This document shows, piece after piece, positions 12,840 to 62,632 of a stretch of DNA of 64,000 nt. Both the position numbers and the translations under genes were made by a program. Position 1 is the first letter of the stretch, and each line of letters begins with the position of its first letter. Below the pieces are notes generated by a model. The model made no database searches, had not been told where the DNA came from, and was given only the letters and a program-made list of their open reading frames with translations. Source of the stretch: Eledone cirrhosa (taxonomy: Eukaryota); contig OZ024745.1 of NCBI GenBank assembly GCA_964016885.1, positions 75,144,001 to 75,208,000 on the forward strand, in the 5' to 3' direction.

Positions 12840-12899
<60 letters not shown>

Positions 12900-12903
<4 letters not shown>

Positions 12904-15900
12904 TATAGACATAGAATATTCGAAAATATTCTGTATGTTTATAATAAACATTTTGAAGACCTAATCGCTATAGAATAGAATACGTCACGTATTACAATTA
13001 GATTCTCGATAAAAGCAAGGGAAGTAATCTACGCGTTTCATTCTTGTTAGAAATCATCAGGACCACATATCCAGTGCTTTTATCGAGAATGACACAGCTA
13101 GAGACTTATAGAATACTTAGCTGTGTACAGGAACTGGTTTGAAAGAGCGGTTGCCGGTCCGGCAGAAATTAGAAATTGGAATAAATGCTCTGAAATAGCG
13201 ATATATATGTGAATATAGACATAGAATATTCGAAAATATTCTGTATGTTTATAATAAACATTTTGAAGACCTAATCGCTATAGAATAGAATACGTCACGT
13301 ATTACAATTAGATTCTCGATAAAAGCAAGGGAAGTAATCTACGCGTTTCATTCTTGTTAGAAATCATCAGGACCACATATCCAGTGCTTTTATCGAGAAT
13401 GACACAGCTAGAGACTTATAGAATACTTAGCTGTGTACAGGAACTGGTTTGAAAGAGCGGTTGCCGGTCCGATTCCAATTTCTAATTTCTGCCGGACCGG
13501 CAACCGCTCTTTCAAACCAGTTCCTGTACACAGCTAAGTATTCTATAAGTCTCTAGCTGTGTCATTCTCGATAAAAGCACTGGATATGTGGTCCTGATGA
13601 TTTCTAACAAGAATGAAACGCGTAGATTACTTCCCTTGCTTTTATCGAGAATCTAATTGTAATACGTGACGTATTCTATTCTATAGCGATTAGGTCTTCA
13701 AAATGTTTATTATAAACATACAGAATATTTTCGAATATTCTATGTCTATATTCACATATATATCGCTATTTCAGAGCATTTATTCCAATTTCTAATTTCT
13801 GCCGGACCGGCAACCGCTCTTTCAAACCAGTTCCTGTACACAGCTAAGTATTCTATAAGTCTCTAGCTGTGTCATTCTCGATAAAAGCACTGGATATGTG
13901 GTCCTGATGATTTCTAACAAGAATGAAACGCGTAGATTACTTCCCTTGCTTTTATCGAGAATCTAATTGTAATACGTGACGTATTCTATTCTATAGCGAT
14001 TAGGTCTTCAAAATGTTTATTATAAACATACAGAATATTTTCGAATATTCTATGTCTATATTCACATATATATCGCTATTTCAGAGCATTTATTCCAATT
14101 TCTAATTTCTGCCGGACCGGCAACCGCTCTTTCAAACCAGTTCCTGTACACAGCTAAGTATTCTATAAGTCTCTAGCTGTGTCATTCTCGATAAAAGCAC
14201 TGGATATGTGGTCCTGATGATTTCTAACAAGAATGAAACGCGTAGATTACTTCCCTTGCTTTTATCGAGAATCTAATTGTAATACGTGACGTATTCTATT
14301 CTATAGCGATTAGGTCTTCAAAATGTTTATTATAAACATACAGAATATTTTCGAATATTCTATGTCTATATTCACATATATATCGCTATTTCAGAGCATT
14401 TATTCCAATTTCTAATTTCTGCCGGACCGGCAACCGCTCTTTCAAACCAGTTCCTGTACACAGCTAAGTATTCTATAAGTCTCTAGCTGTGTCATTCTCG
14501 ATAAAAGCACTGGATATGTGGTCCTGATGATTTCTAACAAGAATGAAACGCGTAGATTACTTCCCTTGCTTTTATCGAGAATCTAATTGTAATACGTGAC
14601 GTATTCTATTCTATAGCGATTAGGTCTTCAAAATGTTTATTATAAACATACAGAATATTTTCGAATATTCTATGTCTATATTCACATATATATCGCTATT
14701 TCAGAGCATTTATTCCAATTTCTAATTTCTGCCGGACCGGCAACCGCTCTTTCAAACCAGTTCCTGTACACAGCTAAGTATTCTATAAGTCTCTAGCTGT
14801 GTCATTCTCGATAAAAGCACTGGATATGTGGTCCTGATGATTTCTAACAAGAATGAAACGCGTAGATTACTTCCCTTGCTTTTATCGAGAATCTAATTGT
14901 AATACGTGACGTATTCTATTCTATAGCGATTAGGTCTTCAAAATGTTTATTATAAACATACAGAATATTTTCGAATATTCTATGTCTATATTCACATATA
15001 TATCGCTATTTCAGAGCATTTATTCCAATTTCTAATTTCTGCCGGACCGGCAACCGCTCTTTCAAACCAGTTCCTGTACACAGCTAAGTATTCTATAAGT
15101 CTCTAGCTGTGTCATTCTCGATAAAAGCACTGGATATGTGGTCCTGATGATTTCTAACAAGAATGAAACGCGTAGATTACTTCCCTTGCTTTTATCGAGA
15201 ATCTAATTGTAATACGTGACGTATTCTATTCTATAGCGATTAGGTCTTCAAAATGTTTATTATAAACATACAGAATATTTTCGAATATTCTATGTCTATA
15301 TTCACATATATATCGCTATTTCAGAGCATTTATTCCAATTTCTAATTTCTGCCGGACCGGCAACCGCTCTTTCAAACCAGTTCCTGTACACAGCTAAGTA
15401 TTCTATAAGTCTCTAGCTGTGTCATTCTCGATAAAAGCACTGGATATGTGGTCCTGATGATTTCTAACAAGAATGAAACGCGTAGATTACTTCCCTTGCT
15501 TTTATCGAGAATCTAATTGTAATACGTGACGTATTCTATTCTATAGCGATTAGGTCTTCAAAATGTTTATTATAAACATACAGAATATTTTCGAATATTC
15601 TATGTCTATATTCACATATATATCGCTATTTCAGAGCATTTATTCCAATTTCTAATTTCTGCCGGACCGGCAACCGCTCTTTCAAACCAGTTCCTGTACA
15701 CAGCTAAGTATTCTATAAGTCTCTAGCTGTGTCATTCTCGATAAAAGCACTGGATATGTGGTCCTGATGATTTCTAACAAGAATGAAACGCGTAGATTAC
15801 TTCCCTTGCTTTTATCGAGAATCTAATTGTAATACGTGACGTATTCTATTCTATAGCGATTAGGTCTTCAAAATGTTTATTATAAACATACAGAATATTT

Positions 15901-16577
15901 TCGAATATTCTATGTCTATATTCACATATATATCGCTATTTCAGAGCATTTATTCCAATTTCTAATTTCTGCCGGACCGGCAACCGCTCTTTCAAACCAG
16001 TTCCTGCACACAGCTAAGTATTCTATAAGTCTCTAGCTGTGTCATTCTCGATAAAAGCACTGGATATGTGGTCCTGATGATTTCTAACAAGAATGAAACG
16101 CGTAGATTACTTCCCTTGCTTTTATCGAGAATCTAATTGTAATACGTGACGTATTCTATTCTATAGCGATTAGGTCTTCAAAATGTTTATTATAAACATA
16201 CAGAATATTTTCGAATATTCTATGTCTATATTCACATATATATCGCTATTTCAGAGCATTTATTCCAATTTCTAATTTCTGCCGGACCGGCAACCGCTCT
16301 TTCAAACCAGTTCCTGTACACAGCTAAGTATTCTATAAGTCTCTAGCTGTGTCATTCTCGATAAAAGCACTGGATATGTGGTCCTGATGATTTCTAACAA
16401 GAATGAAACGCGTAGATTACTTCCCTTGCTTTTATCGAGAATCTAATTGTAATACGTGACGTATTCTATTCTATAGCGATTAGGTCTTCAAAATGTTTAT
16501 TATAAACATACAGAATATTTTCGAATATTCTATGTCTATATTCACATATATATCGCTTTTTCAGAGCATTTATTCCA

Positions 16578-16584
<7 letters not shown>
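12900..16584 (+). mobile_element. Retrozyme-like tandem array: 310-bp unit, 10 sense copies (13472-16584) + about 1.85 inverted copies (12900-13471)
   Basis: gccggaccgg recurs at 13491, 13801 ... 16281 (period 310); only two substitutions seen (16007, 16558); one HHR per unit; (TA)n on both sides. Confidence 0.85.
13588..13630 (+). ncRNA. Type-I hammerhead ribozyme (first sense copy; repeats every 310 bp)
   Basis: GTGGTC-CTGATGA-T-TTCT(aaca)AGAA-T-GAAA-CGCG-TA-GATTAC; stem I GUGGUC/GAUUAC, palindromic ACGCGT in stem III, predicted cleavage after GUA at 13624. Confidence 0.85.
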
Positions 16585-33539: not shown

Positions 33540-34040
33540 AGGACACATTGTCAAGTGGTAGTGCTAGTGCCCCGATACCCTCAGATGCCAGAGAAGCTCC
33601 TTAGAAGTTGTTGACAACTTTTATTACCTAGATGACCTAATCAGCAGTTGGGAAAGATGATCTGTAAGTCCAGGTAAGAAGTTTCAGTAGCTGGTACCTC
33701 TGCTGACAATAAAGAGCTTCCTTTTCAGAATGAAGGCTAGACAGTATGATGCCTGTGTGTGAACTGCAATGTTACAAGGCTAGAATGTATGAAGTGAGTA
33801 TACTCTGATGGATGTGTAATGTTAATGTGCATGAATGATATAGCATATATAAGCATTGGTATGGTCATATGGACGATGGCAGCTGCATAAAAAATACAGA
33901 AATTTATGGAATTTATGGAAGAAGCAGAATGAGGTACTGAAGATCAACCCTAAGAAGCTAAACCTCATAACAGAGGTGAGAAAGAACTGTGAGGGCTGGC
34001 ACTATGCAATACTGGTGAAGATTCAGCTACCAGCATAAAA
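33540..34040 (+). mobile_element. Old degenerate RTE fragment
   Basis: agaatgaaggctagacagtatgatgcctgtgtg homologous to positions 5-35. Confidence 0.65.
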
Positions 34041-34799
34041 TGTGACTTGACACCCCCCCACTCCACTAGCATGCCCTAGTAGCTAACCTCTCCATCATTG
34101 CACACCCTCACCCATCCATGCCCCCTTCACTATGACTCCTTAGCTATTTCCCTCCATCTAAAGTCCTTAGATACCTACACTACTGCAGCCTAGTAACTAC
34201 TCTTTCCACCCCTGTGTATTTCCACCAAACTCATGCTCCCTCTACTACCATTTCTTAGCTATTCACGCAATCCAAACACACTGGTGAGTACCACCCCTTA
34301 CGCTAATGAGCACTATAACTGCTTAAGTATTCTCACCATCACTACATCCACCTCCTATGCAATCAGAAGTCATCCCTTCCCTCCTACTTATCACCCTGTC
34401 AAATTCCAATACACTTGCCAAACATCCATAATGACATATCTTCCTTCTTTTCTCTATCCCTGCAGAGCAGAGATGGCTCTTCTGTTGGGACAAGGACCAA
34501 CAATCTCTAGTGTTGGTGCCATGAAAATGCACCTGGTACATCTTGTAAGGTGGTTGGCAACAGGAAAGGCACCTCACTGTTGAAATCATGCCTAAAAAGG
34601 ATCGAGAGGACTCTTCATTTGTGTCATGGCATGACAATCTCTCTAGTGTAGGTGACCTATATAATAAACAAACCCAGTATACGCTGTTAGTGGTTGGTGA
34701 TAGGAAGGGCATCCTGCCATACGATGCTTACCAAGCCAAATTCAACATTTCAACAAAATATCTACACGCTATTATATATCCATTCTTCTCTAAGTATTT

Positions 34800-35240
34800 C
34801 TTCTTCGCCCACTTATTCCTGAGAGGGTAATGGGGGCAGAGTCCTCAAACACTCCTGCTGGTCCTGTCAGAAGCAACCATCTCCAACTTATCTGGCTGGA
34901 TCCCCAAGCGTGACCAACCAAGCTCAGGGATATAATCCAACCATCTTGCTCAGTGTTTACCTCTGGGTCTCCTACCTGTTGGTTTTGCCAGTAAAATCTG
35001 TCCAGTGGTTCTTTCCTGAGACATTCTAACCATTGGAGCTGTGATCTCCGAGCTACGCACTCTATTGAGTAATGTTACTCCAAAGACACTTCGGAGGAAC
35101 TCCATTTTGGCCGCTTGTATTGGTGATTGTACTCTTTCTGTCATTACCCAAGATTCATGACCACTGGTAAAGGTTGTCATGAATACCGAATTAAAGCTAA
35201 CAAGTTTGGCCTTTACACCTATCTCCCTTCTGATTACTGA
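34800..35240 (-). mobile_element. RTE-like 3' fragment family (also about 26645-26980 and 32185-32560)
   Basis: ORF 34950-35318 GHESWVMTER...IQAAKMEFLR...GRRPRG; shared end ccacttattcctg. Confidence 0.7.
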
Positions 35241-35623
35241 ACTCTTTTTCAAATATTCTTCTTGGATAACAGTTTGGGAGGGGTGTAATTGTAACAAGGA
35301 GTGCGTTGGAAAATTCATTTAAATAAAAGGGGTCTTTCGTAGTGATTACTTAACTTGCTAGAAATAACAACCAAATCACTCTCATATCACACCAGATCGT
35401 TTTTACAAAACAGTTTAGTATAGGCTGAGATACCTTGTCTCTGAGTAAAAGATGGAATGGTCATGGTTGGAACGCTTTTCCTTCTACCAAGGTTGATAAA
35501 ATAATTACTAGACAAAGTACAGATGTTAATATAATGGACTATGCTCTTGAAGGAAGTACCTCACCATGGCCAGTCCAATGATAGAAGTCACAGTAAAAGA
35601 AAATAGAATCATTATTTACATAC

Positions 35624-35806
35624 CATCTGGAGGATTTTCTTCCGAGCATTGTCAACCTGATTTTCAATGTGCTGGATCAATATAGTGTTTGGTTTTAGAT
35701 CCCATTTTTGCATCATTTCTAAAAGTACTAATTTGTATTTAAAATCCATATTGCTCTTGCGAACTAACAGACCAAATATTTCAATATTTGGTTCCATACC
35801 AATTTC
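35624..35806 (-). CDS. PTCD1: PTCD1 coding exon 8
   Basis: EIGMEPNIEIFGLLV...MMQKWDLKPN; AG/GT, phase 0. Confidence 0.9.
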
Positions 35807-36275
35807 CTAAAACAACAAAGAAAAAAAAAATTGTTATTAGAATGGGTAGGTGGATGAATGGACGAAATTAAATGTGTTATATAAGTTACAAAAGATTAGA
35901 CTTGATAATTGTGTTAGCTGCTGGAAGTATGAAGTAGTAGTCCAAGATCTCTTAGTTAACTGCTATGTGGAGTATGATCCTGACCTTGAAGTAACACTTG
36001 ATGCAACACCAGCATATGAGATAACACACTAAACTATCACTAACTGTAGCAACTTGATGCTGGACTTCAAACAGCTGGTGTTTTGTGTCTCTCCAGCACT
36101 CCTCTTAACTCTGCAACCTCAGCTGTTTGAAATCCAGTATCAAGTTCTAGCTACTGACAACCTTACACAATAATTTTCATTATTTCATGAGAAATACTGG
36201 CTATGCACCCCCCTCCCCACCATCAACTTTAAATATATTGAGTACTTTTATTGGAAATTCATACTCACTTTTAAT

Positions 36276-36307
<32 letters not shown>

Positions 36308-37571
36308 CACACACACATATATATATATATATATAGTGTAGTAAAAGTTTGGTAAAAATATCCAAGGGTAAGAGCACTCAGTCTATAGGACGAGTTTGGT
36401 ATAAATAGTTACAACAGTGACATAAACAAGTACTTAAGTTTCGTTGGGTTCTGCACAACTCATTCAGCTTGCTAGGGGTGCAGAACCCAACGAAACTTAA
36501 GCACCTGTATATGTCACTGTTGTAACTATATATATAGACTCTTGTGTGTTATAAAAGGTGATTAAAACAGTTGGCACCAGGAAGAGCGTCTGGCTAGTAA
36601 AACAATGCCTCAAAAAGTTCCATCGAAACTATGCAAGGATGGAAAAATGGTGACATATATATCTATATATATATAAAATGAATAAAAGTAGCTAGGATTA
36701 AATTACATTAAATTATTTAATTGGTTTACGAACGTTTCTATCAATACAGTAAGAAAATGCATTTTTTCCTCTGTATTAATTTCTTCAGAATCTATTAAAC
36801 AACATAAATAACAATTATTTACCAACCACATGTCTGAACATCAGTACAAAGGAAAAGATGTATTTTCTTATTGTATTAATAGAAACGTTTGTAAATCAAT
36901 TAAATAACACATGCAAGCATTGAAAAGTGGATGTAAAAACGATGATAATGATGAATTTAATCCTGGTTATTTTTATTCAGTTTATATATGCTCTGTGATA
37001 TTGCAAAACTACTGTTATTGCAAATTTACCGATTGGATTAACCTCTGAACTGTCTTTTACCTATCGTGCTGTGAACTATAAAATCATATTTGAGCTTTGA
37101 ATTATTCTTTGCCTTATATGATTGTGTTATCAACTCATCTAAACTATTGTATACACACAGACACACACATATATATCATCATCATCATTATCATTTAACG
37201 TCTATCTTCCACGCTAGCATGGGTTAATTGGGTTTGTCTCATTAGAGGCAAGTTGAGTCGGGTGACTGTGTCTTGCTCATATAGGGCTGTTTCTGGCTGG
37301 TTTTCTACAGCTGGATGCCCTTCCGGATGCCAACGTCATTTACAATGTGTGCTGGGTGCTTTTTGCCATGTTTCCTACACGACCACTTTACAATGTAGGC
37401 TGGGTGATTTTTGTCGTGACACCTATATAACATACATTCTAAAATAAAATTAGGTAGAAAGTACTTTAGATAAATATTAAACATTTTGGCACCAACAGTT
37501 TTGTATCATTGAACTAGGGGCAGTTTCAGGTGGTTTGGTATTACAAGGATTAACAGAATACTTATCCTTAC

Positions 37572-37688
37572 ATCAATACTACAAAGGAGTTCTTTTGCTT
37601 CTCTGATTTTCGTACAACCCATGGCTAAACAACCAAAAGTTCTTAGGTTAGGATGGAGATTATCTTCTCCAACTTTTTGTAAAACATC
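37572..37688 (-). CDS. PTCD1: PTCD1 coding exon 7
   Basis: DVLQKVGEDNLHPNLRTFGCLAMGC... Confidence 0.92.
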
Positions 37689-39616
37689 CTGAAAAAAAAA
37701 AAAATCAACATCATCATATATCCATTTTCCATGCTGACATGGGTAAGATGGACCGTCATGGTCCCAGAGTAGGTTGGTTGGAGGGGCCACGTCATGCTCA
37801 TATGTTCCATATTTGGTTTGATTTCTATAGCTGGATGCCTTTCCTAATATTGACCACTGTACAGAATGTACTGGGTGCATTTTACTATATCATCAGCACT
37901 AAAGAGGTTGTCATGTACTCAGCAAGACTGAAGAGTCCTCGCCACCCTATCTTAATATATATATTTTTAAAAGTTTAATGAATAAACATTGTAGTCTCTG
38001 ATCGAGATGAAGTGAGACTATTTGAATTCATATAAAAATGAGAAAACTCATCGCTAGAAAAGCCATCACCCACCTTGGGGATTGTCTCTCTGCTGACCAC
38101 TGGCCACTGGTCTCTGTCCTCTTGAGGCATTTTTGCCCACTGCTGTCATTGACAGCATTTGGCTGTTTTATAGATGTTCTAGTGATGAGTTTTCTCATTT
38201 TTATATGAATTCTAAAAGTTTGTTTGTATGTCTGTTTCTCCTCCCCAACTTTTATTTTTATGTAACAACCATTTGTTTCTACTCTGCTTCCTCACTTCAG
38301 ATTTTTTTTGTTTTACTTCTCTCCCCTTTCCTCATTCTCTTTCATTTATCATTTCGGTCTCATCCTTTTTTGCACACTTACAACTTTCCTAACACATCCT
38401 TAAAGACACTACTGTTTTGCTGGTGTCACGAGTGCTCTCCCACTCTATCCCTTTGTTATCGCCTCTCTCTTTCTCTCTCTCTCTCAACTTTGGAATATTT
38501 TCTTACATTTGCACGTTATCAAAAACTATTTCATAAAAAAAAAAGAAAGGAAAAGTAACAGACAGTATGTAAATATGTATGTTTGTGTGGAGATGCACAC
38601 ATAATATAAAATATTCTTGCTCACACGCATGTACATACACAAATGGTATATATTTTAATTACCAATTTCCATGTCATTTTTTTTTTGTTAGGTCTGCAAA
38701 GAAGGGGCTGGGCCCATGATCTTTGCAGGCTCACTAAGGCTGATGAAATTGGGTGCTTGTTTACATTCAATTGAAATTGTTGCAGGTTGATTCCTGCAAT
38801 GAAGGACATATGCAGGGAAATAATTCCAGAGAGGAAAGACTGGGTGTATTGGTTAGTGGAGGGCTTGGAAAGTTGGATACAAAATAGGTGATGAGAAGAG
38901 GTGAGACAAATGAGGCAGGAATGTCTAAGTAAAGGTTGTACGAGGCCAGCGAACTCTGAGGAGAAGGGGCCATGGTAGTATGATAAAAAAGCAGAGAAAG
39001 GTGACAGAACATCTGTAGGCCAAAGCCTGGAGTGTATCTGTCAGTAAATCTATACCAGACAAAGAACCTTTTTCTGGATGCAGTTTAGGATGTTTTTATG
39101 TGCGTGAGCAGTACTCCACTTTAAATCGTACATGAGTTTTGTAAAAAATCAGAAGTTGTTAAGGGTTAAAGTCATTTCTGGCTCTAAAGAGAAGAGCCAG
39201 TTTTTTTTAACTCTTTCATTACCATATTTCTAATGTAAAACACTTCTGATGATTTTCAAATAATTTTCAAAATAATGAAGAAATTGGAGAGGTTTAGTCA
39301 TTTCTTATTATTAAGTTGGTGTTTAGAGCATACAATTCTGTACTGGATGTATTTTATCATATCCCCATCACTACCACTTTACAGAGTGTACTGAGTGTAT
39401 TTTATTGCAGTGCCAGCACTACCATTTTTCAGAGTGCACTGGGTGTATTTTATACTATACTTTTGGAATATCCACCTCCACTACCAAAGAGATCACTTAG
39501 CTATCAAAAGCTATCAACTACTTCTAAGGAACCTTTTGAGCAAAATTAAATGATAGACATGCACACATAGTTGTATGTCATAAGACAAATAAATAATTGA
39601 AAAACATAAAACAAAC

Positions 39617-40014
39617 CCTTGCATCTTGATATCGTAAGGCGCGGTTTCTCCTCTTTATCATCATATTATACAAGTCAATATCAGGTTGTACCCCCAAACT
39701 TTTCATGTAATCCAGAATTTCAACCTCTGCATTATTGTTTAATGGTAGACAGTCAATGATTTGAGAAAAGGTTTGAATATTTGGTTTAACGCCGTTTATC
39801 TCCATATCTTTAAGAATGCTGAAAGGTCCACCTATAAGAGCAAGTCGGTTATCTGGGTAGGTAAGATCAAGTTCCTTTGTTTTTTGTGACTGAGCAAAAT
39901 AACTGGGATCATTTTCAATTAAATCACTAATTGGTTGAACCATCTGATTCACTAAAGAATGATTGATACTGCCAACTGCAACTTCACAATCTTCAGTTCT
40001 TTCATTTATTTTTG
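39617..40014 (-). CDS. PTCD1: PTCD1 coding exon 6
   Basis: PDNRLALIGG...GVKPNIQTFSQ...GVQPDIDLYNMMIKRR. Confidence 0.93.
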
Positions 40015-40310
40015 CTGAAATAAAAAAAAACGAAAGATTGTCATATGTATAAGGTTCAAACCTAAATATATGATTTTCAAACTATTTTTACATCTACAGG
40101 CATGGCTTTATAAGTTCGCTTCACAATTACCAACGTAATGAAAAGTTCATGACTTTGGGTAAATGAAAATACAGGAGGATCAGTTAAAAGAAAACACAGG
40201 AGGATCAGTAAACAACCAGAACAAATATGGCATCTTATCTGATGCTCTGCCAATTCCCTATTAGAATATAGTGTTTAAAAACAAAATCCAACTTAAGAAA
40301 GAGAAAATAC

Positions 40311-40479
40311 CTTCAACTGCTGAAGTTGACTGGTTATGGGTTGGTGGTGCAACGAATCTTTTGGGGAAATTCGCAATGTTATTAGTGGTACCAAATCCTG
40401 AATCTCTGATGGTACGAATTAATAAGTTGTAGAGTGGAAGGTCTGGTTTGATCTTCAGAGACTTCATCTGTTTCCAAAT
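40311..40479 (-). CDS. PTCD1: PTCD1 coding exon 5
   Basis: IWKQMKSLKIKPDLPLYNLLIRTIRDSGFG. Confidence 0.92.
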
Positions 40480-42050
40480 CTATTGAGGGAAAACAAATAA
40501 TCAAACAAAAGTATTTATATGGGTTTAGGTATGGCTGTGTGGTTACGAAGACTGATAACAAATATATTCCTGATTCTGATCATCAATTGTTAATTAGCTA
40601 GCTCTGTTATCATTAACTCTACATTTGATGACACTGCCATCACTGCCGCCAACACCACTACCACTATCAGGTATGTAGAATTAATCTCAGGTCCCAAATA
40701 TCCCCTCCCCACCACTTATTAAATTTTGCTAAGCTATCGCCAGCGAAATTTTATTTTAAGTGGTAACATTTAATTTTCTTTATACATTAAAAAACATTAC
40801 TAGAAATTTCATACGTTATAAAATAAATAGGACGGGTAAACTAAACTAATTCTCATTTAATAAAAAAATAAAATGAAGGGAGACAACCTAGAAAAATTAG
40901 ATTCCTTCTCATATTATTTGGGATATGAGAGTAAATACTTTATTCCGAGATACAATAAAATGGCTGTAAACCCAAGACCAGCCGTTTTATCACCCCTATA
41001 AACAAATAAATAAATAAAAATCAAGATAAAAAATCCCAGTATCACCTGAATTTGCTTCAAAACTAATGAGAGATCTACATGTCTTCTCAACCTGCAGAAA
41101 GCAACAGTCAAATCTCCCACAAATTATTATCTACTGACTTGAAAAAGACAAAGATGTGTAGTCTTTGGTGGTAGACTTAATTTGTTATTTGGTTTAACAC
41201 CACCATCTGGCTCTTGGGTGCCTTAAGAGGAATTTGTTAGGTACAAGCATATGGATTGGGTCTCCAGTTTAAGGATTGCCCCCAGTCATGGAGACTTAAA
41301 AAGGATTATAGACACTTTCCTTCCCTCCCTGGTGGGTACACTATTCTCAAATACAATATGAGTCATAGCTTGAATGACTTTGATCATAGGTTTCCTTGAT
41401 CTGGGTCAACCTGGGGCTAAACAACATCTCTGAAACCAAATATTTATAAAGAGATGGAAAACATTTGAAATGTCAGATGGCAAGGTTACTCTTTCACTAC
41501 CTTCAAATAACAAGAATTTGGAGTGATTTAGTAATATAATTAACTTTCTCATTAATTAGCTGGTTTTGGAACATATGCAGATTTGTTTGCAGGATGCAGC
41601 CCAATCACAGCCCCACCCTTAGGCCCTGAGCCCATCACCCTCTCCCCTCCCTTTCTTCTGTGCCCTTGCTTTTTCCTTCCTTTTCCTCTCATTTATGGCA
41701 TTTATAGTCCTTTCCTCTACTTTCCCATACAGCCATATCTACCCTTCTTTATCCCTTTCCCTTTTTTCTCATTATTTAATTTTGTTTTTATCTTTCTTTT
41801 TCATATCTATGTAATTATCAATGGTTTTTAAGTCAACTTGTAAGTTTAAAAATTTTTGTTTTCATCTTTGAAATGGTGAAATGGATAACTAATAGATGAG
41901 CAACAGTAAAATATATTCCTACAGACAAAAAGTAAAAAATTATTTTTAGAGATTTTTACATCAAATAAGGAAGGTTTAAAAAATATATATAAACACTATA
42001 AAATAAACAAAGGCAGTTTCAAGAGGTTTGGTATTAAAAGTTGTGTTTAC

Positions 42051-42368
42051 CTGTAGAGCATGTCTGAATCCTGCCTTTTTATCTGATATACAACCCATTA
42101 GTAGAAAGCTAAATAGTTCAGTGTCTGGAGGATGTATTTCACAGTAGGTATCGGCAACCTTGAATGCCGTCTCAATATCACCACATATGCTGTAAGACTT
42201 GATCATTGCTTTATATGTAATGGGATGAAGAGGTATTCCTTTTTCAATGATCAAGTCATGGAGTTTGCGAGTCCTTCTTAGACCATCGTTCAACCAAGGG
42301 GAATTGGAACAGCAGTTAAATAAATTAGTGTACGTGTGACCATTAGGTTGTAAGCCCATTTTCTTCAT
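42051..42368 (-). CDS. PTCD1: PTCD1 coding exon 4
   Basis: MKKMGLQPNGHTYTNLFNCCSNSPW...FSFLLMGCISDKKAGFRHALQ. Confidence 0.96.
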
Positions 42369-43270
42369 CTGAAATAGATATTATTTTGTTAGTACAAAAA
42401 CATACCCTCTTTTTTTTTGTAGCTTGGGTTTTAGGTACATTGTATCCCTGTATGTTGTAGGAGGTGGCTAGGTTGGTGTCAAGAAAGACATTTGGTTGTA
42501 AAATACTACCTCAAATCCACAAGCCATGTCAGAAAGGGAAAGATGGATGCAAAAAAAGACGATAATGAGGGATTAGCAGAATCAATAGAGTGATATTCAA
42601 AGGTTGATGAAATAAGTATGGGTCAAGTACAACGTTGATATAATCGACTATTTCCTTCACCAACATTTATAGCCTTGTGCCTGTTGGAAACCGGTGGATT
42701 GGCAGTATCGGGAAAGCATTGGACATGCTTTGAGGCATATAGTTATGGCCCTTTATGTTCTGAGTTTAAATCCTGCCGAGGTTAGCTTTGCTTTTCGTCC
42801 TTATGGGGTTGATAAGATAAAGTACCAGTAATGCACTGGGGTCGATTTAATCGACTTCCCCTCTCCCCAAATTCTTGACTTTGTGCTTAAATCAGAAACC
42901 ATTATTATTACTGTTGTTATTATAAAGGGCTGTGGATCGGCAGTATCGGTAGAGCGTCAGACAACATGCTTTATGACATAGTTACGGCCCTTTATGCTCT
43001 GAGTTCAATTCCTGCCAAGGTTAGCTTTGCCTTTCATCCTTATGTGCTGGAGTCGATTTAATTGACTTTCCCCTCCCCCAAAATTGTTGGCCTTCTGCCT
43101 AAATCAGAAACCATTATCATTATTATATGGTATAAGACAGGGAGGCATATATTTTGCATGACTTTACTCAAATCTTGTGTTCCCATACCATTGATCGTTG
43201 GTTGAGATTTGTATATAATTATCAGATGTATATATTTATCAGACCATAAAAGCATCATAGAAAGACTTAC

Positions 43271-43411
43271 TTTATTAAACAAACTGAAAGATTTCTTGGT
43301 GTACCCAGCTTTTCCAAGAATACTAAAAAGTTGGTCAAAAACATAAGGTGTTGGCATGACACGGTCCCTTTTTAGCATCAATTCTTCCAGTGTATCAATA
43401 GCTTCCAAAAT
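43271..43411 (-). CDS. PTCD1: PTCD1 coding exon 3
   Basis: ILEAIDTLEELMLKRDRVMP...GKAGYTKKSFSLFNK. Confidence 0.93.
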
Positions 43412-43968
43412 CTTCGAAATAAAAAACACACACACACAAAATTGAGAATGGTGAAAAAGAATCCCTTCCTCACCCCACCCCACCAAAAAGCTGCAATACA
43501 AGAAATTGATTACTGAGAAATAATCTTAGAAGTAAAATTGGTATTTTTTCATTATAAAGTGGTTGTTGTTAGGAAGGGCATCTAATAGTAGAAACCATGT
43601 AACGACCCGTCCAGCCCATTCCAGCATTGAAAGTGGATGAAATAATGATGAGACCCTCACCACATCATCCTAGGTCTTCCCCTTCCATATATATATATAT
43701 AAAACCTTTTGTATATATCGTTATTTTGTTGTGTGTATAGTTTGTGCCTTCGGTTGGTCCTCTTGGTGTTACATTTTTTAACTATGGTGTTTAACTCTGG
43801 ACTTAATGTTTGTTTTTAACTTTCGATCCATTGAGTGCTCTGTGATTGCCTCAAAACAAATTGAATAGTACTTGTTGAACTGCAGTTAAAGTTCGATTTA
43901 CAAATATATATATATATATATATTATAAAATAACAGGAGGCTGGACTGGTGTAATTCCTTAAAGAAAA

Positions 43969-44004
<36 letters not shown>

Positions 44005-44011
<7 letters not shown>

Positions 44012-45101
44012 CAAATAACGAAACGAAATTAAATTTTGTTTCGTTTGTAACTCACTTTTGTATGACTGACGCTTAAACAATTAAGTTAAAAATGTACATC
44101 TACATATGCATACTGAAATACTAGTGTGTATATGAATACACACACGTATACATATGTATATGTAACAAGTCTTTCACTGGTTGCTTTACTGTGAGCAACC
44201 CAGCTATTCTGTATGTAAACACACAGACAAACCGGTTTTTAGAGTCATACTGGTTTTCGGGGGAACACCTTCCCTCTATTCTCCAGAAAGCCAGACAAGG
44301 AATATTGAACTAGTTTCGTTGTTGTTACAACTCATCAGCAATATTTACCTATCTACCGGCCCTTCTGGAGAATTGTAAAAGCACATATCGTTATATGCTT
44401 TTTCTATGAAAATTAGTAGTGGGCAGACTAATTTGCATAGAGTGTGAGTACGCACCGGTTCAGCAGAGACGATAAAAACAAATAACGAAACGAAATTAAA
44501 TTTCGTTTCGTTTGTAACTCACTTTTGTATGACTGACGCTTAAACAATTAAGTTAAAAATGTACATCTACATATGCATACTGAAATACTAGTGTGTATAT
44601 GAATACACACACGTATACATATGTATATGTAACAAGTCTTTCACTGGTTGCTTTACTGTGAGCAACCCAGCTATTCTGTATGTAAACACACAGACAAACC
44701 GGTTTTTAGAGTCATACTGGTTTTCGGGGGAACACCTTCCCTCTATTCTCCAGAAAGCCAGACAAGGAATATTGAACTAGTTTCGTTGTTGTTACAACTC
44801 ATCAGCAATATTTACCTATCTACCGGCCCTTCTGGAGAATTGTAAAAGCACATATCGTTATATGCTTTTTCTATGAAAATTAGTAGTGGGCAGACTAATT
44901 TGCATAGAGTGTGAGTACGCACCGGTTCAGCGGAGACGATAAAAACAAATAACGAAACAAAATTAAATTTCGTTTCGTTTGTAACTCACTTTTGTAAGCA
45001 ACCAGTGAAAGACTTGTTACATATACATATGTATACGTGTGTGTATTCATATACACACTAGTATTTCAGTATGCATATGTAGATGTACATTTTTAACTTA
45101 A

Positions 45102-45103
<2 letters not shown>
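44005..45103 (-). mobile_element. Retrozyme-like tandem repeat: 467-bp unit x about 2.1 (44005-44996) + inverted partial copy (44996-45103)
   Basis: Unit starts at 44005, 44472, 44939; HHR per unit on the minus strand; (TA)n on both sides. Confidence 0.85.
44301..44345 (-). ncRNA. Type-I hammerhead ribozyme (second copy 44768-44812)
   Basis: Minus strand AATATTG-CTGATGA-GTTG(taacaa)CAAC-GAAA-CTAG-TT-CAATATT; perfect 7-bp stem I, palindromic ACTAGT in stem III. Confidence 0.9.
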
Positions 45104-45186
<83 letters not shown>

Positions 45187-45189
<3 letters not shown>

Positions 45190-45528
45190 GCACATGGCTT
45201 AGCTTAGTGGTTAGAGCATTGGCCTTGCAATCGAAAGGTTGTGAGTTCAGTTCTCAGACCGGGTGATATGTTGTTTCCTTGAGCAAGACACTTTATTTCA
45301 CACTGCTCCAGTTTACTCAGCTGTAGAAATGAGATGATAGGGACTGGGGTCCATATCGTTCCACTGCAAAGTGGTCGTGGAGGTGCCACCGCAAAAAAGC
45401 ACCCAGCACTCACTGTAAATGAGGTTGGTGTTAGGAAGGGCATCCAGCTGTAGAAATCAAGCCAGAATCAGTTCCCGTCCCACCCTTGCAAGCAGGGAAA
45501 AGCGGACGTAAAATGATGATGATGATGA
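45187..45528 (+). mobile_element. tRNA/CORE-like SINE with RTE tail
   Basis: Same family as 6898-7193. Confidence 0.9.
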
Positions 45529-46345
45529 TACAGATACAAGCATGGTTATGTGGTAACTTGGTCAAGAGACATGTACTATAGCCTCAGGTTGACTAATGCT
45601 TGGTGAGTGAATTTGGTAAACCGAAAAAGAAAAAAAAGCTTGATGTGTGTGTGTGTATATCTCTCTCTATATAGTGCTGGTACCACAATAAAATACATCC
45701 AGTACATAAGATGGTTGGTTATAAGAAGGGCATCCTGCTGTAGAAAACCTACCGACATGGAAAAAAGGAGGTATAATATATATATATATGGTTGAACACA
45801 TGTCAGTATGGAAAGCAGACATAAAATGAAGATAATTGTGTGTGTCTGTGTGATTTCTGCGTCCATGGTTATATTGACACCGTTTAAAGCAAGAGGTGAC
45901 GTTCGTTTATGATCAGCATAAACAATATCTCCTACAGCATATGATTGAGCAGTATATATCATAGGTAAAAAAAAAAAATGCCTAAAAAAGTCCTGTTCAA
46001 GCCATAAGAAAGCAGATGTAAAAACACCATCACTTATTATAATGTTGATATATCAGTGGAGGCTATATTCTAACAGAAATAACAGCTATATTCTAACAGA
46101 AATATTCGGTAGTCAATATCCAACTGAATTACCTCCCCTTTCATCTGCGTCTCATTTGCAGTTGGTATTGTTCAAGAATGATGAAATAAGTACAACATAC
46201 GTACTGGGGTCGATATAATCAATTAAAAGCATAAGGTGGTGCCATATTACAGCGACTTAAACTAGTGAAAAAGGAATTTAAATAAAAAAAGAGAAATAAA
46301 AAAACAGCAAAGAAGATGAGTTGAAAGTCAGGAAAGAAAACTTAC

Positions 46346-46469
46346 CTTTCCTTCTTTTCCCAGTTGTTTGATCCTGCCACCGTACCAATACGGCTCATGT
46401 AACCTTCCCGTAGGAGAAAGTCGGATGTGAGTCCGACCTTCCTTTTCATCTCGCTTGTCATGGATGAAA
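46346..46469 (-). CDS. PTCD1: PTCD1 coding exon 2
   Basis: FIHDKRDEKEG...HEPYWYGGRIKQLGKEGK, matching the PYWY...KEGK motif of PTCD1; phases fit. Confidence 0.9.
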
Positions 46470-46861
46470 CTGCAATGAGAAATGCAACAATCATTTTAAC
46501 CATTTCGATACTAGTCAGGCCAAAACTGACACTGGTTCAATGAAATGACACCACTTACTTCAAAGGATTCATATTTAAATTAAAATCGTCTAATATAACT
46601 TTATATAAGAACTATATGTTAAGTTACTATCTTAGAAATACAGTCATGAAAGGGCTAAGGTCATTTTCCTTGCTAAAGCAGTAGTTAGCATTGTGGACCC
46701 TATATATATATACACACACACACTCACATACATATGTATACACACACACACACACACACATATGTATCTATATATACACATATACATAGACACATGCGTA
46801 TATACATAAATATACACATATATATATACATAAACATACATATATATATAGACACATACAT

Positions 46862-46998
46862 ATCATCATCATCATCATTTTATGTCCGCTCTTCCCTGCT
46901 TGCAAGGGTGGGATGGGTCTTACTCAGCACAGCATCTCTCCACTTGTCACGGTCCTTCGTCATCTCCACCGTGAGCTTCAGCAATCCGAGGTCTGTCC
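46862..46998 (-). mobile_element. Short RTE 3' tail
   Basis: Reverse-complement homolog of 6275-6405. Confidence 0.8.
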
Positions 46999-48041
46999 AC
47001 AATGCTAAGCACTGCTTTAGCAAGGAAAATGACCTTAGCCCTTTCATGACTGTATTTCTAAGATAGTAACATATATACATATATATATATATATCAGAAT
47101 AGAAGCAGTAAAAACCAGTTAGACCATTACTCACCAGAGTACTTGATACTTGGAGTATTTCTATGTCCCCGCACATATATACACACATGTACATACATAT
47201 ATACATATAAACACACATGTATATATATGTATATACATATTCACACATTTTTGGATGGCCGTTGACTCTTATGAGTTCTTCTGCCTTTTGTCAGGTTTTG
47301 TTTTTTTTCCTGCAGGGTGTCCAAAATCACCCTCCTCACTAAGTAAACTTAGTGGGGTTGCCGGTTTAGTCGCCGACGACCCGACCATAAGACAGGATGT
47401 ACTGGGTTACATGTTACCAGTAACACTCGAGAGCGACCTGACATACATACATATATATATGTAAAAGGTAAACGGTACATACATATATATATACATGTAT
47501 GGGCGATAGAATATGCATGTGTATTTTTTTCTCATTTTACCCCGTTCCTTCCTCTTATCACTCTTAACTTCTTTTTCTACTCTATCTTCTGATAAAGGAC
47601 TAGTGCCCGAAATGTTAAGACTCTCTTCTTTCTATTTTAAGTGGTAAACTAATATATTTCTTTGATGTACTCTGCTATTTGTTTTGTTATTTCTGTTTAC
47701 CTTTTACATATACATATATATATATACATACGTATATATTATATATACGTACATATATGTGTGTGTATGTATATATATGTGTGTGTATATATACGTACAT
47801 ATATATGTGTGTATGTAGGGTTGGCATACTCAAGTGGAGCTACATCTCGTTCACTCACATTCCCATACTGGTATTTACTCTTTTGGGGGAAATAACTACA
47901 CGAAGGGAAGTAACTCAATAGATGATCTCAACCATTCAGTAAAGAAATACAAATCGATAAAATGACTATGTACTGGAGAGAAGATCGATATTATTGACAA
48001 AGCACCTTGAAATCATTAAAAGAATAAAATAAGAAACTAAC

Positions 48042-48601
48042 CTGTTATCTTCATCTTCATCATGAGACAATTTCTCTTGTTCTAATGTGTTACTTAGACT
48101 CCCAAAATTTTCAGACCAAGAAGATTGTTTTCTTTCAGATTTCAAGGAAGGATAATTCTTTAATGACACTTTCTTTGGTTTTTCATCAATAATTCTCTTT
48201 CGTTCAGTTGTAGAAGTCTTTTTCAAAGGTTGCGGTGTATATTTCTTTGTATTTTGCCAAATATTACCAAAAGAATCGATATCATGTGAAGATGGTACAG
48301 TTGTTTCTAACCATTTATTATTTTCTGCCTTTTCTTCTGCAGTCAAAATTCTCTTAAAACGTTTCCGATGCTCTCTGTTCTTTTTAATTTCCTTATTTTC
48401 AGGAAGATTTAGAGAATGTTCTGTTGAAGTAGAAATAACAGTACAGAAGTTGCTGGTTCCAGTTGAGATGACAGTCTGGGTTAGTTGCTGAGTGAGATTA
48501 TCCAAGATAGTCAATGAAGATATTTTGTTGTGACATATGTTCTTTGTAATACCAGGCTGCAACTGAATTGCTTTTATAACTCCTATTAGTAACTTTGACA
48601 T
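48042..48601 (-). CDS. PTCD1: PTCD1 coding exon 1 (N-terminal, probable mitochondrial targeting region)
   Basis: MSKLLIGVIKAIQL...FGSLS..; acceptor before 48616, donor gttagt at 48041; total CDS 2160 nt. Confidence 0.8.
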
Positions 48602-50269
48602 TGTGTTATAGTAAATCTGCAAAAACAAGATAAATTCTTAAAATAATGATGATATACACACATTTATGGTTAGTGATTGAACTGTAAAAATGAAGGGTAG
48701 AGAGGACTCTTTATTCATGTCAAAGACATGACAACCTATCTATTGCTTTGATAAAATGCACCCAGTATACTCTGTAAGCTAGTTGGTATAAGGACATTTC
48801 ACTATTGAATATTGAGATATCTGTGCTGTCTCTGTACACTCTGAGTTCAAATCTCACCTCCCATCACCAGAAAAGTGGTAACATTTCTGCCAGGAGTTAC
48901 AACCATCAGATAGTATCTGCAACAGAAGCAGTTTCCTTTGTCTGATCTAAGTGATTTGCCCTTTTCCTTTCCTTATCTATTAACATATGATTTTCTGTGA
49001 TTGGGTAATGAATGGATGGGTTTCTAGTACAACATTTAGAAATGGGTGTCAGGCCATGTGGAACCTTATGTTTCAGAGGAGGATTAAGTTTTAAATAACA
49101 CCAGGGTTTGTTTTTAAAATGGAAAGCCAGAGTATTAGGCATCAGCATCTCCTTCTTGGGTATTTTTAGCAGAATTCACTTCATTGCAAGCATATTAACC
49201 AGGCAACTTGGCCCCACCCTATTCATGCTTTTTTTCGCAGATTTTTCTTTATTCATGCTGAACATCAGTCACATCAACCTCACCAAAAGGGAAAGAAAAG
49301 TGGAGAAACTAAGTGGTATTTCAATTGTAAAGTGTAGTTCTACTAGATTTTAGATGGAGACACTAATATGATTCAGGGATCCTCACTTGATATGTTAGAT
49401 CTGGAAGCAAAATCTCCATCAGATCAGACATGTATTTAAAAAGAAACATAAATCCTGCTTGGAAAAAAAAAAAAGGCAGATGGTTAAGGTTTGTACACCT
49501 TCGATCATAGGTTTACTTGATCAGGATTGACCCGGGCAACAATTAGTATTCTGGTTTCACAGACATGAAATTGAACTCAGTACAAATTAATTAACCACTA
49601 ATTAACCAATCTGATAGTAGTGCTGCTGTTCTTACACTGTGGTACCTATTTACAGCTAGTTAGACTGAGGTCTTGGAGAGTTAAATATTTTTGACATGTT
49701 CAGTTGATGATAAATATACAGAATTACAACAGAAGTAGAATGGCTAAGTAATTCAGGATTACACTATCTGCTCAGAGGTCATTGGTTCACGTTATTATTT
49801 CCAACCTTTTATTCTTTCACTAATTTCATTCTTTGGCCTGTAGTCAGACTGGGTCTTCATATGTTTTAGTCGAATATATTACATTTTTATCTATTGAATG
49901 GTTAAGCCCATCACTAGCTTAAAGGGAAGTAACTTAAGAAGATTCTTTTTGCTCGACGTATCAATACAACCCCACCCATTATCATCTACCAACCTAGATA
50001 TCTATCTATCCCTTTTATTGGTACCAGTTATTAGGCTACAGATATGCAAGGCATTGATTTAGTCACTCATATCGACCCCAGTGCTTATCATAGTGATCCC
50101 CTTTTTTGTCGAATTGCTAAGTTACGGGATATAAACACACACACACACATATATGTATGTATATACAACAGGCGTCTGTAGTTTCTGCCTACCAAATTCC
50201 ACTGACAAAGCATTGGTCAACTCAAGGCCATAATAGACGACATTTGCCCATCATGTTTTAGTCTGGCGT

Positions 50270-50644
50270 GTTCATTTAGTGCTGAATTGTCTTTTTAGTT
50301 CATTCTAGTGTTCATCTCTCCTCTCTCCTATGCTGCAGGCTGTCTCTCTTATGTACTTCGCTGTCATGTTTTTGCAGACACCTTCTGTACATCTTATACT
50401 ATAGACTACATTTGTAGTTTTACAATTTATTAGTGGACTCTACATATTACACATTTCTTATTTGTACAGTGGGTTTACTTAAAGGGGTAAGTTTTATTGA
50501 TCAGGGATTTTATGGTAGTTCCTGAATTTTCTACCACTTCAATATTTAAATAGGTTTTTCTTAGGGCCTTTCTAAATCAACAAGCTAGTTCACCTCCAGG
50601 GGTTGCATTCATGAACATGACACTCTGGTATCTCTGGTTGTCGT
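50270..50644 (-). mobile_element. Degenerate Penelope fragment related to the 59.7-62.5 kb element
   Basis: Aligns by eye with about 60585-60903 (e.g. catgacactctggtatctctggttgtcgta). Confidence 0.8.
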
Positions 50645-50651
50645 ATATATA

Positions 50652-53943: not shown

Positions 53944-54142
53944 ATAAATATTTTGTATCTCCAAAGAAATACAGTTTTAGGAAGCCGTAGCTATGCAAAC
54001 ACAGGGGGGTGGGAGTGGGTGTGGGAGGGACCGCCCTGACGAAGGCCAGTTAAGCCTGAAATGCATAGACGGTTGTTCCCCCGGTGTTTGCATAGCTACG
54101 GCTTCCTAAAACTGTATTTCTTTGGAGATGCGAAATATTTAT
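53944..54142 (+). mobile_element. PLE-end-like hairpin (about 64-bp inverted arms) enclosing an HHR (54030-54073)
   Basis: ACCGCC-CTGACGA-AGGC(cagttaa)GCCT-GAAA-TGCA-TA-GACGGT; arms 53944-54007 / 54079-54142. Confidence 0.75.
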
Positions 54143-59748: not shown

Positions 59749-62550
59749 AACGGCGATGAATTAGTTTTGCGAGGTTTTTTATATGAAATCGTGTGTCGAA
59801 ACAAATATTGTTATACTTGGGGAGGGTCATATTTGTGTAATATTGCGAGATTAATAACAGAACACACTCACTGTTTGGTTGGTTTTCGCTTTTCACTTCT
59901 GTGTCTTTTATATCGGTAATCTAATTTACTCGGTCCTCAATGTTGCCATTGACTGATCAACGGTCAAAAATAATACAGATACAATATAGACGCAAACACA
60001 TATATATAGTTTATCATAAATCTTTCGTTGCACATCTGCACTATCGTCAGTGGTGCTATTGTTTCCTCCTGTTGAATTGTATGGCTACACCATTTTTATT
60101 CAGTCTGTCTATATATTTATTTATTTATTTGCTTGTTTGTTTATTTTATTTTGTCTTCTTTGCGCATGCGTTTGCGTGTGTGTATAGTGTTTTGTTTGAT
60201 GTGTGATGTGTGTTCGTGATTGGGTGACTAATGTGTGTTTATGTGTTTGTTGTTATTGTGCTTGTGTATGTATTTATTTATTTATTTTATTTATTTATTT
60301 AATTTAATTTAATTTATTTATTTATACTTCTCTTAGGTCAGTGTTGTTTGTTTGGGTGTTGTTGTTATTCCATTCATTCTTTCTGTTTAGTCTTGGTCTT
60401 CTAAGTTCTATTTCACTGGCCTCTCTGATTTGCCTATCTGCTGGGTCATTTCTATGTTTAGATATTATTCTAATTTCTATGTTGTCTATGTTACCGTCAT
60501 GTTGTTGTCTGGCATGTTCGTATAGTACTGATCCGTCTTTTCGTCCTTTTAGTTCCCCCCAGTGTTGGTCTATCCTTTCACCTATGCTACGAGCTGTCTC
60601 ACCTATGTATGTTGTTGTCATGTTTCTGCAGGTACCCTCTGTACATCTTATGCTATAGACTACGTTTCTAGTTTTACAGTTTATCCGGGGGTTTACCTTA
60701 CATATGATACATTTCCTATTGGTACAGTGGGTTTTCTTAAAAGGGTAGGTTTTGCTGATCAGGGATTTTATGGTGGTTCCTGGCTTTTCTACCACCTTAA
60801 TTTTTAAGTGGGTCTTTCTCAGGGCCTTTCTACACTGGTTAGCTAATTTCCCTCCAGGGGTAGCGTCCACAAACATGACACTCTGGTATCTCTGGTTGTC
60901 GTACCATGAGGTGGCTTTCCCTGTCTTATGTTTAGCCCTATCTAAGCTATTCCATGATTTGCTCCTGTATAATGGGCAAATTCCTTTCATGTCCAGTTCT
61001 ATGAGGGTCTTATACTTCTCCATGGCTCCTTCGTATACTCTGACTCTGTCTCTTTGGTTGTAGCCAGAGAACTGCATGCGGTTGATGAAGTGTTGGATGT
61101 GTCTTTCCATTTCTGTTGGGTCGCACATGCGGGACATATTCTTCATCACTCGTACCAAATCTGCGATCAGAATATTAAACTTAGCACTACTGGACATTGC
61201 TGAGTTTTTGAGTATCAGGTATTTGGAGGCCATAGGTTTAGCATAGTGTGAGTGGAGAATTTGGGCTCTCTCGTCTATAGTGTTAATCCAGAGTTCTGTG
61301 TCTAATACAGGTAGTCTATTGTTAGGGTGTTTGGAAAGGTAGTCGATAGTTACAGTTATACTATGGTGTATGGAATTAGCTATCTGCTGGATGCTTTCCA
61401 TTGTGCTACGTTCTAAATCAAACTTGTTAGTGCTCTCTAGTGGGAATGTTCTTATAACTATATTGATATCGTCTACATCACGAGAGTACATGATGAGGTC
61501 TATGGAGCACTCATTAAGGGGATCTTTAAGTCGCCTTTCCCACCATACCATGAAAAGGTTGGCAACATCACCAGCTAGGCTGACGCCAATGGCTGCTCCT
61601 TCATTTTGGGTGTAGATCTTCTCGTTGAACTTAAATATGTGGCCCTTGAGGGTAGTTTTGATACTAGCCCCTATTGCATGTGCGACCATTTTTCTTACCT
61701 GATCATTGTTTTGGGGGGTCCGTATAGCTTTGGTCCACCCAATCCACCTTCCCATGGGAGTCTTTTTCGCCATTGGGGTTATGGTGGGGGGTCTACCTCT
61801 TATGGGTCTACTAGGGCAGAAACGTCTAAGGTCATGGCTGTCTAGGTAGTCAGTGTCGTAGGTAAGTCTAAGTAGGAGGCCCAGTTCGTCTGTGTCGACG
61901 TCGCAGAACTCCACCTCACTCTCAATGATCATCTCCACACATTTTTCCACAGCAAAATCAATGTTAATGGATGGGTACAGTGACACCACATCCATGCTGC
62001 CTATTATGCAGTTGGATAGGTTCCTGTTTTTGTTGCACTCACTGATTCTGCTGAGGAGGTCCTCTGTACTGTCACATACATCCGGGGACATCTTGATTAT
62101 GGGGCGTATAACCATTGAGAGGAAGTAGGAGATCCTGTAGTTGCTAGCTATATTAGCTCCGCATACGGGTCTTGTTGGTGGTCCTGTTGTCGAGTCGTCG
62201 ACTGTCTTGTGGTTTTGCGGAGCCCATACAAGGGTGGTATGCCATTGTTAGACGCCTGGAAGTTGTTGGCAGTGCGTCTGCTTGGCTTTAGGATGTCAGT
62301 CCACATCATCATGTGAGCGTTGAGGATTTTCTCTCTCCCATCGTGTGTTTGTTGTGCAATTTCGCTCGTGTTGGTGATGTGGGGTTGCATAGCCTTGATG
62401 TAGTTCTGTATGCTATCTATTGACATCCTACCAGACTTATCCGTGGGTAGACACAGAAGCGAAAAGCGAAAACCAACCAAACAGTGAGTGTGTTCTGTTA
62501 TTAATTCTGGCAATATTACACAAATATGACCCTCCCCAAGTATAACAATA
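59748..62550 (-). mobile_element. Penelope-like retroelement, 5'-truncated, with inverted pseudo-LTR (62449-62550) and RT + GIY-YIG ORF (60322-62115; upstream frameshifted part to about 62445)
   Basis: RPII, SMDVVSLYPSI, GAAIG, RDVDD (YVDD variant), LPVLD; CxxC..C..RNVVYSIRC...TYIGET.RSIGERIDQH...EASEI...LN; 62449-62550 is the reverse complement of 59805-59906; (TA)n on both sides. Confidence 0.95.
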
Positions 62551-62632
62551 TATATATATATATGTATATGTATATGTATATATGTATATATGTATATGTA
62601 TATGTATATATGTATATATATATGTATATGTA

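Follow-up and report, generated by a model that had tools for sequence, protein, structure and literature searches.

A 467-bp hammerhead repeat in an Eledone cirrhosa intron: a likely non-LTR retrozyme with the insertion structure of a PLE

A head-to-tail, non-coding repeat with a unit of 467 bp was found in an intron of Eledone cirrhosa. The whole stretch of DNA that was analysed, 64,000 nucleotides in length, is called the window here. The repeat is multicopy, and I consider it probable that it is a non-LTR retrozyme and that it was put into a (TA)n microsatellite by the reverse transcriptase (RT) and endonuclease of a Penelope-like element (PLE). Judged from its sequence, the repeat has all of the sequence-level features of non-LTR retrozymes that were examined (PMC7229834, bioRxiv 10.64898/2026.07.22.740005).

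The array and its surroundings

Tandem-repeat analysis of the window detected an array at positions 44005-44996 with a period of 467, 2.1 copies and 99% identity. The array is 992 bp in length, that is, 58 + 2 x 467 bp or 2.12 units of 467 bp. It is flanked on both sides by (TA)n and lies between two exons (46471-46343 and 43414-43268) of a PTCD1-like gene, one exon of which has 84% identity to an O. bimaculoides protein and 83% to an O. vulgaris protein (tblastn). Since the host gene is on the minus strand, the ribozyme strand described below is sense to the host. The parts of the locus are as follows.

33108-48634, minus strand: PTCD1-like gene with nine exons (tblastn)
46343..46471, minus strand: PTCD1-like exon upstream of the element
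45107..45186, no strand: right flank, (TA)40
44996..45103, plus strand: inverted 108-bp head, identical to 44079-44186 and 44546-44653
44939..44996, minus strand: 58-bp partial unit, the 5'-truncated end of the main array, no hammerhead
44472..44938, minus strand: 5' full unit, 467 bp
44005..44471, minus strand: 3' full unit, 467 bp
44005..44078, minus strand: 3' tail of the main array (74 nt) that the inverted copy lacks
43977..44007, no strand: left flank, (TA)15, preceded by an A run and sharing 2-3 nt with the element end
43268..43414, minus strand: PTCD1-like exon downstream of the element

Thus, the original prediction of about 2.1 near-identical units between (TA)n flanks was correct. 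The units differ at three positions (44037, 44465 and 44959), and each difference is a CpG transition; the CpG share of the unit is 30 of 467 bases. These changes are consistent with methylation of the host intron. Since only three CpG transitions separate the units, though the copies of the family are diverse, the two units were identical at insertion. The inverted copy that had been noticed at the 5' end was also confirmed, as 44996-45103 equals 44079-44186 at 108 of 108 bases. The remaining 74 nt (44005-44078) have no inverted partner. This tail had been described as unpaired, which holds relative to the inverted copy but not for the tail itself, as here a 13-bp hairpin (44017-44045) precedes a U-rich run. 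At the junction of the inverted head, one base is common to both arms, with an imperfect GTA microhomology. The left (TA)15 is probably the target microsatellite at the 3' end of the element. There is (TA)n next to each of the two 3' ends, and the main end has 2-3 bases in common with it; priming of two cDNAs, one on each strand of the target, would give such ends.

Is the inverted head or the tandem an assembly artefact, such as a fold-back or a mis-joined repeat? The head is 100% identical to the units and its junction is known from the assembly alone, as such an artefact would have it. However, it is no simple fold-back, its arms starting at unit phases 58 and 182. The units carry distinct CpG changes, a head-to-tail joint exists in the data set X1, and the head-plus-tail layout recurs in the window. 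An artefact is hardly credible.

Two other elements of the window have this layout.

12891..16584, plus strand: 310-bp hammerhead array of 10 units; inverted head of 1.9 units, tail of about 38 nt, (TA)n flanks
59750..62551, minus strand: 5'-truncated RT + GIY-YIG element; inverted head 62449-62551, 55-nt tail 59750-59804, (TA)n flanks

The inverted head, the tail and (TA)n are common to the 467-bp array, the 310-bp array and the RT + GIY-YIG element. This supports the proposal that the 467-bp repeat is a second retrozyme-like non-coding family which shares a PLE-type insertion architecture with the 310-bp array. The 310-bp array, which has a U-U at the base of stem II and a GUA triplet, has two differences among its 10 units and is a very young insertion. 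The element at 59750-62551 has an RT-like ORF with a CX4CXXC linker, a YIGET motif and a frameshift near 62215. Its best protein match is an RT-domain protein of Octopus vulgaris (68%), and two of the 120 relatives listed for the ORF have GIY-YIG PF01541, while the ORF itself gave no Pfam family and no useful PDB match. By its domain order and layout, it appears to be a PLE and is a candidate for the type of mobiliser. No sequence homology was found between the 467-bp unit and the PLE pieces, including the PLE 3' region, in the window. An RT + GIY-YIG ORF was not found in the 467-bp element, the unit read as a circle has no ATG ORF over 20 aa, and the window has no tRNA gene.

Three elements of the window that are unrelated to each other have this layout, which bears on another origin, in which a solo monomer was duplicated at the DNA level by unequal crossing-over or by template switching in repair, the ribozyme being a dead passenger and no RNA step being involved. 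Local satellite-type amplification is favoured in bioRxiv 10.64898/2026.07.22.740005, the units are nearly identical, and AT-rich microsatellite surroundings are unstable. Besides the recurrent layout, the (TA)n directly bounding the array at non-matching phases and the preservation of structure in the variation across copies speak against this origin, which I regard as highly improbable.

Further structures were observed in the window. A second endonuclease fragment lies at 50308-50645 on the minus strand. A near-perfect 524-bp palindrome with a tail lies between (TA)n at 863-1440; it has a minimal-type hammerhead-like motif at 1188 on the plus strand and 1057 on the minus strand, and its end matches the window PLE at 84% over 77 bp. 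Three further hammerhead-like motifs with differing loop 2 sequences are located at 2340-2680, 23116-23195 and 53957-54129, two of them close to (TA)n and within a palindrome or a long hairpin. Inverted repeats, several of them bounded by (TA)n and none with a motif that passes the descriptor used below, are located at 1666-1783, 16619-16880, 17355-17506, 36400-36534, 36713-36907 and 46613-47083. Some of these may be further PLE-type insertions.

The hammerhead motif and its loop 2

With a structural descriptor, two type I hammerheads were found on the minus strand, one per full unit, with C3 at 44805 and 44338. The hammerhead expected in each unit is therefore present in both full units. As for specificity, the descriptor reports 19 sites in the window versus one in total over 15 shuffles.

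44745..44840, minus strand: hammerhead A inside the outer stem; C3 at 44805, loop 2 at 44789-44794, stem III palindrome at 44776-44781
44278..44373, minus strand: hammerhead B inside the outer stem; C3 at 44338, loop 2 UAACAA at 44322-44327
44308..44774, minus strand: predicted 467-nt monomer between the cleavage sites; MFE -157.6 kcal/mol, z -9.6

Cleavage is predicted between 44775 and 44774 for hammerhead A and between 44308 and 44307 for hammerhead B. The cleavage triplet of the examined copy is GUU, which is weaker than GUC for hammerhead cleavage. Stem II is 4 bp with a 6-nt loop UAACAA, and stem III consists of one pair and a palindromic tetraloop. The palindromic ACUAGU in stem III and the outer stem around the hammerhead (13+4 bp), both of which had been predicted, are present. 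The claim of a 7-bp stem I was right in that seven Watson-Crick pairs can form, but the alignment to Rfam Hammerhead_HH9 gives 6 bp and an internal loop starting with U1.7. With E 3.1e-6 over the whole window, the HH9 score is 38.6 bits, which falls short of the gathering score (52); no pair is broken. The motif has the same fold as HH9 and is not a member of it.

With its 6-bp stem I, 4-bp stem II and short palindromic stem III, the motif fits the geometry of the metazoan canonical form. Canonical metazoan hammerheads with a short stem III have been described as working as dimers, for which a second copy is needed (PMC4209133). In folding predictions of the stretch with both motifs, the free MFE is -199.4 kcal/mol, the dimer-active fold -197.6 kcal/mol and the monomer-active fold -183.7 kcal/mol. 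The free MFE fold is already essentially a cross-paired dimer, from which the active dimer is +1.8 and two active monomers are +15.7 kcal/mol away. For the 310-bp family, the dimer-active fold is itself the MFE fold (-109.1 versus -91.9). Thus, a transcript with both ribozymes is predicted to adopt a dimeric hammerhead fold and would release a structured 467-nt monomer. None of 100 shuffles was as stable as the predicted monomer, whose z is -9.6 as a linear and -9.3 as a circular molecule.

As had been noticed, the stem II loop of both the 467-bp and the 310-bp motifs is UAACAA. What is the role of this loop? It had been proposed to make tertiary contacts or to be a protein-recognition site, and the former is supported by known type I loops. 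In the Schistosoma hammerhead, loop 2 is CAAAUA and its 3' A pairs with the first U (U1.7) of the internal loop UCCA:GUAC (PMC2632901; PMC11875169). The HH9 consensus of loop 2 is CAAAAA, with which UAACAA agrees at four of six positions, and the internal loop of the 467-bp motif, UCCU:GUAA, is like that of Schistosoma at six of eight. Both families have the 3' A of loop 2 and U1.7. Where Schistosoma has the extrahelical pyrimidine C8, the 310-bp motif has a pyrimidine and the 467-bp motif has an A. By this comparison, the most plausible role of UAACAA is that of the loop 2 partner in the standard tertiary contact between loop 2 and stem I.

UAACAA as a recognition site for a PLE protein, common to independent families, is a very unlikely reading. 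It would account for the same hexaloop in two otherwise unlike units, and the ribozyme of the anole PLE, PAc, is protein-assisted (PMC11167929). However, the loop fits the general type I loop, as compared above, and the predicted cDNA start sites are 229-303 nt distant. UAACAA was found in two of the seven hammerhead-like motif types of the window, namely the two canonical ones. Since it is missing in the other five, including that of the PLE's own 3' region, the loop tracks the ribozyme type and not the use of the PLE, and the recognition-site proposal is left unsupported. Shared ancestry of the two ribozyme domains, suggested by their outer stems, also argues against it.

The two families had been assumed to be independent and without similarity outside the hammerhead. 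The ribozyme domains align over 62 nt at 72.6% (E 2e-4), and the alignment reaches the outer stem, whose 5' arms match at 11 of 16 positions (equalled by 77 of 20,000 random 21-offset bands). This likeness is not demanded by catalysis. For this reason, a common ancestor of the two ribozyme domains is, on sequence grounds, more likely than independence, which is doubtful. The claimed lack of similarity does not apply to the outer stem, but it stands for the remaining unit, which is not convincingly alike. Three other candidates were rejected. Homology of the whole units outside the ribozyme domain was equalled by 13 and 5 of 500 shuffles and by 70 of 586 window segments. A motif just past both 3' ends (11 of 13), which was picked post hoc, was equalled by 14 of 2000 shuffles and 89 of 3015 all-phase pairs, and frequent variation of the family at 44465 and 44463 weakens it further. 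Hammerheads with a UAACAA loop elsewhere, two matches in viral contigs and two in metagenome contigs, were judged to be chance, as none of the four has a convincing stem I or tandem repeat.

Copies of the family in sequencing reads

Is the repeat restricted to this locus? In X21, a DNA run of another sample with the same species label, 3233 of 12,467,656 reads match one 467-bp unit, of which 643 are 99% or more identical, 1101 are 95-99%, 1213 are 90-95% and 276 are under 90%. X1, which is possibly the assembly's own sample and whose kind is not on record, yielded 895 contig pieces of the unit and a head-to-tail joint. Since two alleles cannot yield such identity classes and pieces, occurrence at a single locus, a result that the original prediction had named as counting against it, is excluded. 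In runs X5-X20, which have sixteen other organism labels, 0.13-0.31 of the words of the unit were found; X5 and X6 each have seven short pieces, low in depth and mostly 90-99% alike, from trace DNA or a related species, and were left out of the analysis. Read ends and loose ends in X21 were considered as element ends and rejected, as they lie at AATT sites (44430, 44494-44502, 44546 and 44838) and are restriction ends.

In the X21 reads (unphased), a U-A to A-U swap was found in stem II, with the change at 44797 in 411 of 580 reads and that at 44786 in 404 of 554. The triplet is GUC in 186 of 527 reads, as against the GUU of the assembled copy. The core and loop 2 are untouched by all 40 variants listed of 71 (unphased), while one listed variant, at 44778 (185 of 532 reads), alters the stem III palindrome. 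At paired places there are 21 listed variants, 18 of which leave the pair intact; from the substitution types, 12.9 would be expected to do so. The family seen in the reads is thus multicopy and diverse, and it has a compensatory change in stem II.

The unit might also be the pseudo-LTR (pLTR) of an unseen autonomous PLE, in which case the locus would be a tandem of pLTRs without the ORF and not a member of a free-living retrozyme family. In Xenopus, 24 of 57 retrozyme families match known TEs, and many families match PLE termini (bioRxiv 10.64898/2026.07.22.740005), and the insertion architecture is that of PLEs (PMC8557442). On the other hand, no dominant run-on into other sequence was seen among the loose ends listed for X1, whose contigs are short, and the units join head to tail with no ORF. 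The motif is of the canonical kind and has tertiary loops, while minimal motifs prevail at metazoan PLE termini (PMC7229834; PMC4209133) and the PLE-linked motifs of the window are minimal too. A pLTR origin is unlikely, and the retrozyme reading is retained below.

One copy in X21 may have a further history. Within the segment 44680-44830, eight positions (44703-44707, 44715, 44721 and 44722) have T>C, which is A>G on the ribozyme strand. Each change is in 112-113 of about 315 reads with one read start (two for 44715), and they are nearly absent from X1. The phase of the cluster is inferred from the equal read counts, which indicate one apparent copy. There appears to be selection, through the cut site of the X21 library, for copies having another two T>C changes. 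ADAR prefers As with a 5' U or A. Between 44700 and 44725, nine As follow a U or an A and eight of them have A>G, as against none of the three As that follow a G or a C (p 0.018, a test chosen post hoc). Over the listed variants, the strand bias of A>G (23 versus 12 places, p 0.09) is not significant, nor is the bias of the 5' neighbour at all 19 listed A>G sites (p 0.15). It is tentatively proposed that retrozyme circles are copied by the PLE through twin priming at two internal sites and that their RNA may be hyper-edited by ADAR before reinsertion, by which the edits would become heritable DNA; I hold this to be possible rather than probable. The inverted heads would provide double-stranded RNA for ADAR. 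Nothing specific was found in the literature on ADAR footprints in genomic copies.

An insertion model and known systems

How could the array have been formed? A transcript through both units, for which the host pre-mRNA would suffice, would form a dimeric hammerhead via the ACUAGU palindromes and the outer stems. Double cleavage would yield the 467-nt monomer, and a host ligase would close it into a structured circle. RtcB has been found to circularise axolotl and mussel monomers in vitro (PMC7229834). It is proposed that the circle stays uncut because a lone motif folds poorly within it. The PLE protein would then nick (TA)n on both strands, and two cDNAs would be primed at sites 74 nt apart, one 229 nt and the other 303 nt beyond the cleavage site. 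One cDNA would run for 2.12 units around the circle or along an uncut multimer, and the other would stop after 108 nt. Joining of the 5' ends of both cDNAs would produce the inverted head, the tandem and the tail. A cut linear monomer would need template jumps to give 2.12 units ending mid-unit; a circle or an uncut multimer could serve equally well as a template that needs none. The tail of the anole PLE is set by two RT start sites in vitro (PMC11167929), and inverted heads, tails and a (TA)n bias are hallmarks of PLEs (PMC8557442). Several points stand against the retrozyme model: the GUU triplet, the A at C8, the HH9 score below gathering and the lack of homology to the PLE of the window. 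In addition, only one of nine Xenopus retrozyme dimers was cleaved in vitro (bioRxiv 10.64898/2026.07.22.740005), and the anole PAc hammerhead needs protein for activity and is dispensable for insertion in vitro (PMC11167929).

The 467-bp family resembles the metazoan non-LTR retrozymes of Cervera and de la Pena 2020 (PMC7229834) in its non-coding tandem units, canonical type I hammerhead, GC content under 50% (36% here), highly self-paired monomer (predicted here) and co-existence with PLEs. Its weak palindromic stem III, which favours dimer cleavage, is like that of the axolotl HHR_Amex1, and two retrozyme families per genome are also present in axolotl and mussel (PMC7229834). The 467-bp unit is slightly longer than the units described there (150-450 bp). 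Those retrozymes are known as circRNA and have a target-site duplication, whereas the present family is known from DNA alone and its array has an inverted head, a tail and a (TA)n target. No cephalopod was met among the retrozyme hosts in the text of PMC7229834 that was covered.

Animal retrozymes have already been proposed to be non-autonomous PLEs (bioRxiv 10.64898/2026.07.22.740005). The link made there is based on co-occurrence and pLTR homology in 35 genomes, with no molluscs among the named classes. At the 467-bp array, the link is the insertion structure, and pLTR homology was not found in comparison with the PLE pieces of the window. In the main text of that preprint, the word "tail" does not occur and "inverted" occurs solely in a reference title. 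EN+ PLEs (PMC8557442, PMC11167929) are alike in their partial tandem, inverted 5'-truncated head, one-end tail and (TA)n or AT-rich targets. They differ in having an RT/EN ORF, a tail of 30-40 nt and a minimal ribozyme, while the 467-bp array has no ORF, a 74-nt tail and a canonical ribozyme. Sm-alpha of Schistosoma and the vertebrate HH9 (RF02275; PMC2632901) share the 6-bp stem I, the internal loop with U first and the 6-nt A-rich loop 2 ending in A; the 467-bp motif is unlike them in the GUU triplet, the A at position 8 of the internal loop and the stem III reduced to a palindrome. No cephalopod retrozyme was listed in the open literature that was searched; supplements and subscription papers may list some. 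The words "ribozyme" and "retrozyme" have no occurrence in the available text of an O. vulgaris repeat annotation (PMC13282606).

Since the retrozyme class is already known, the 467-bp element itself is no surprise. The mover of retrozymes has so far been argued from co-occurrence and pLTR homology, to which the two young arrays of this window add the insertion signature of PLEs, beside a PLE that bears it as well. From the ends of the 467-bp and 310-bp arrays, two cDNA start sites are predicted, and an in vitro PLE assay in which they can be examined already exists. As one intron carries two ribozymes in the sense direction of the host gene, the locus also lends itself to studying whether introns give rise to circles and whether splicing is affected. 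Should the A>G copy be confirmed, it would be a genomic record of RNA editing entering the cephalopod germ line.
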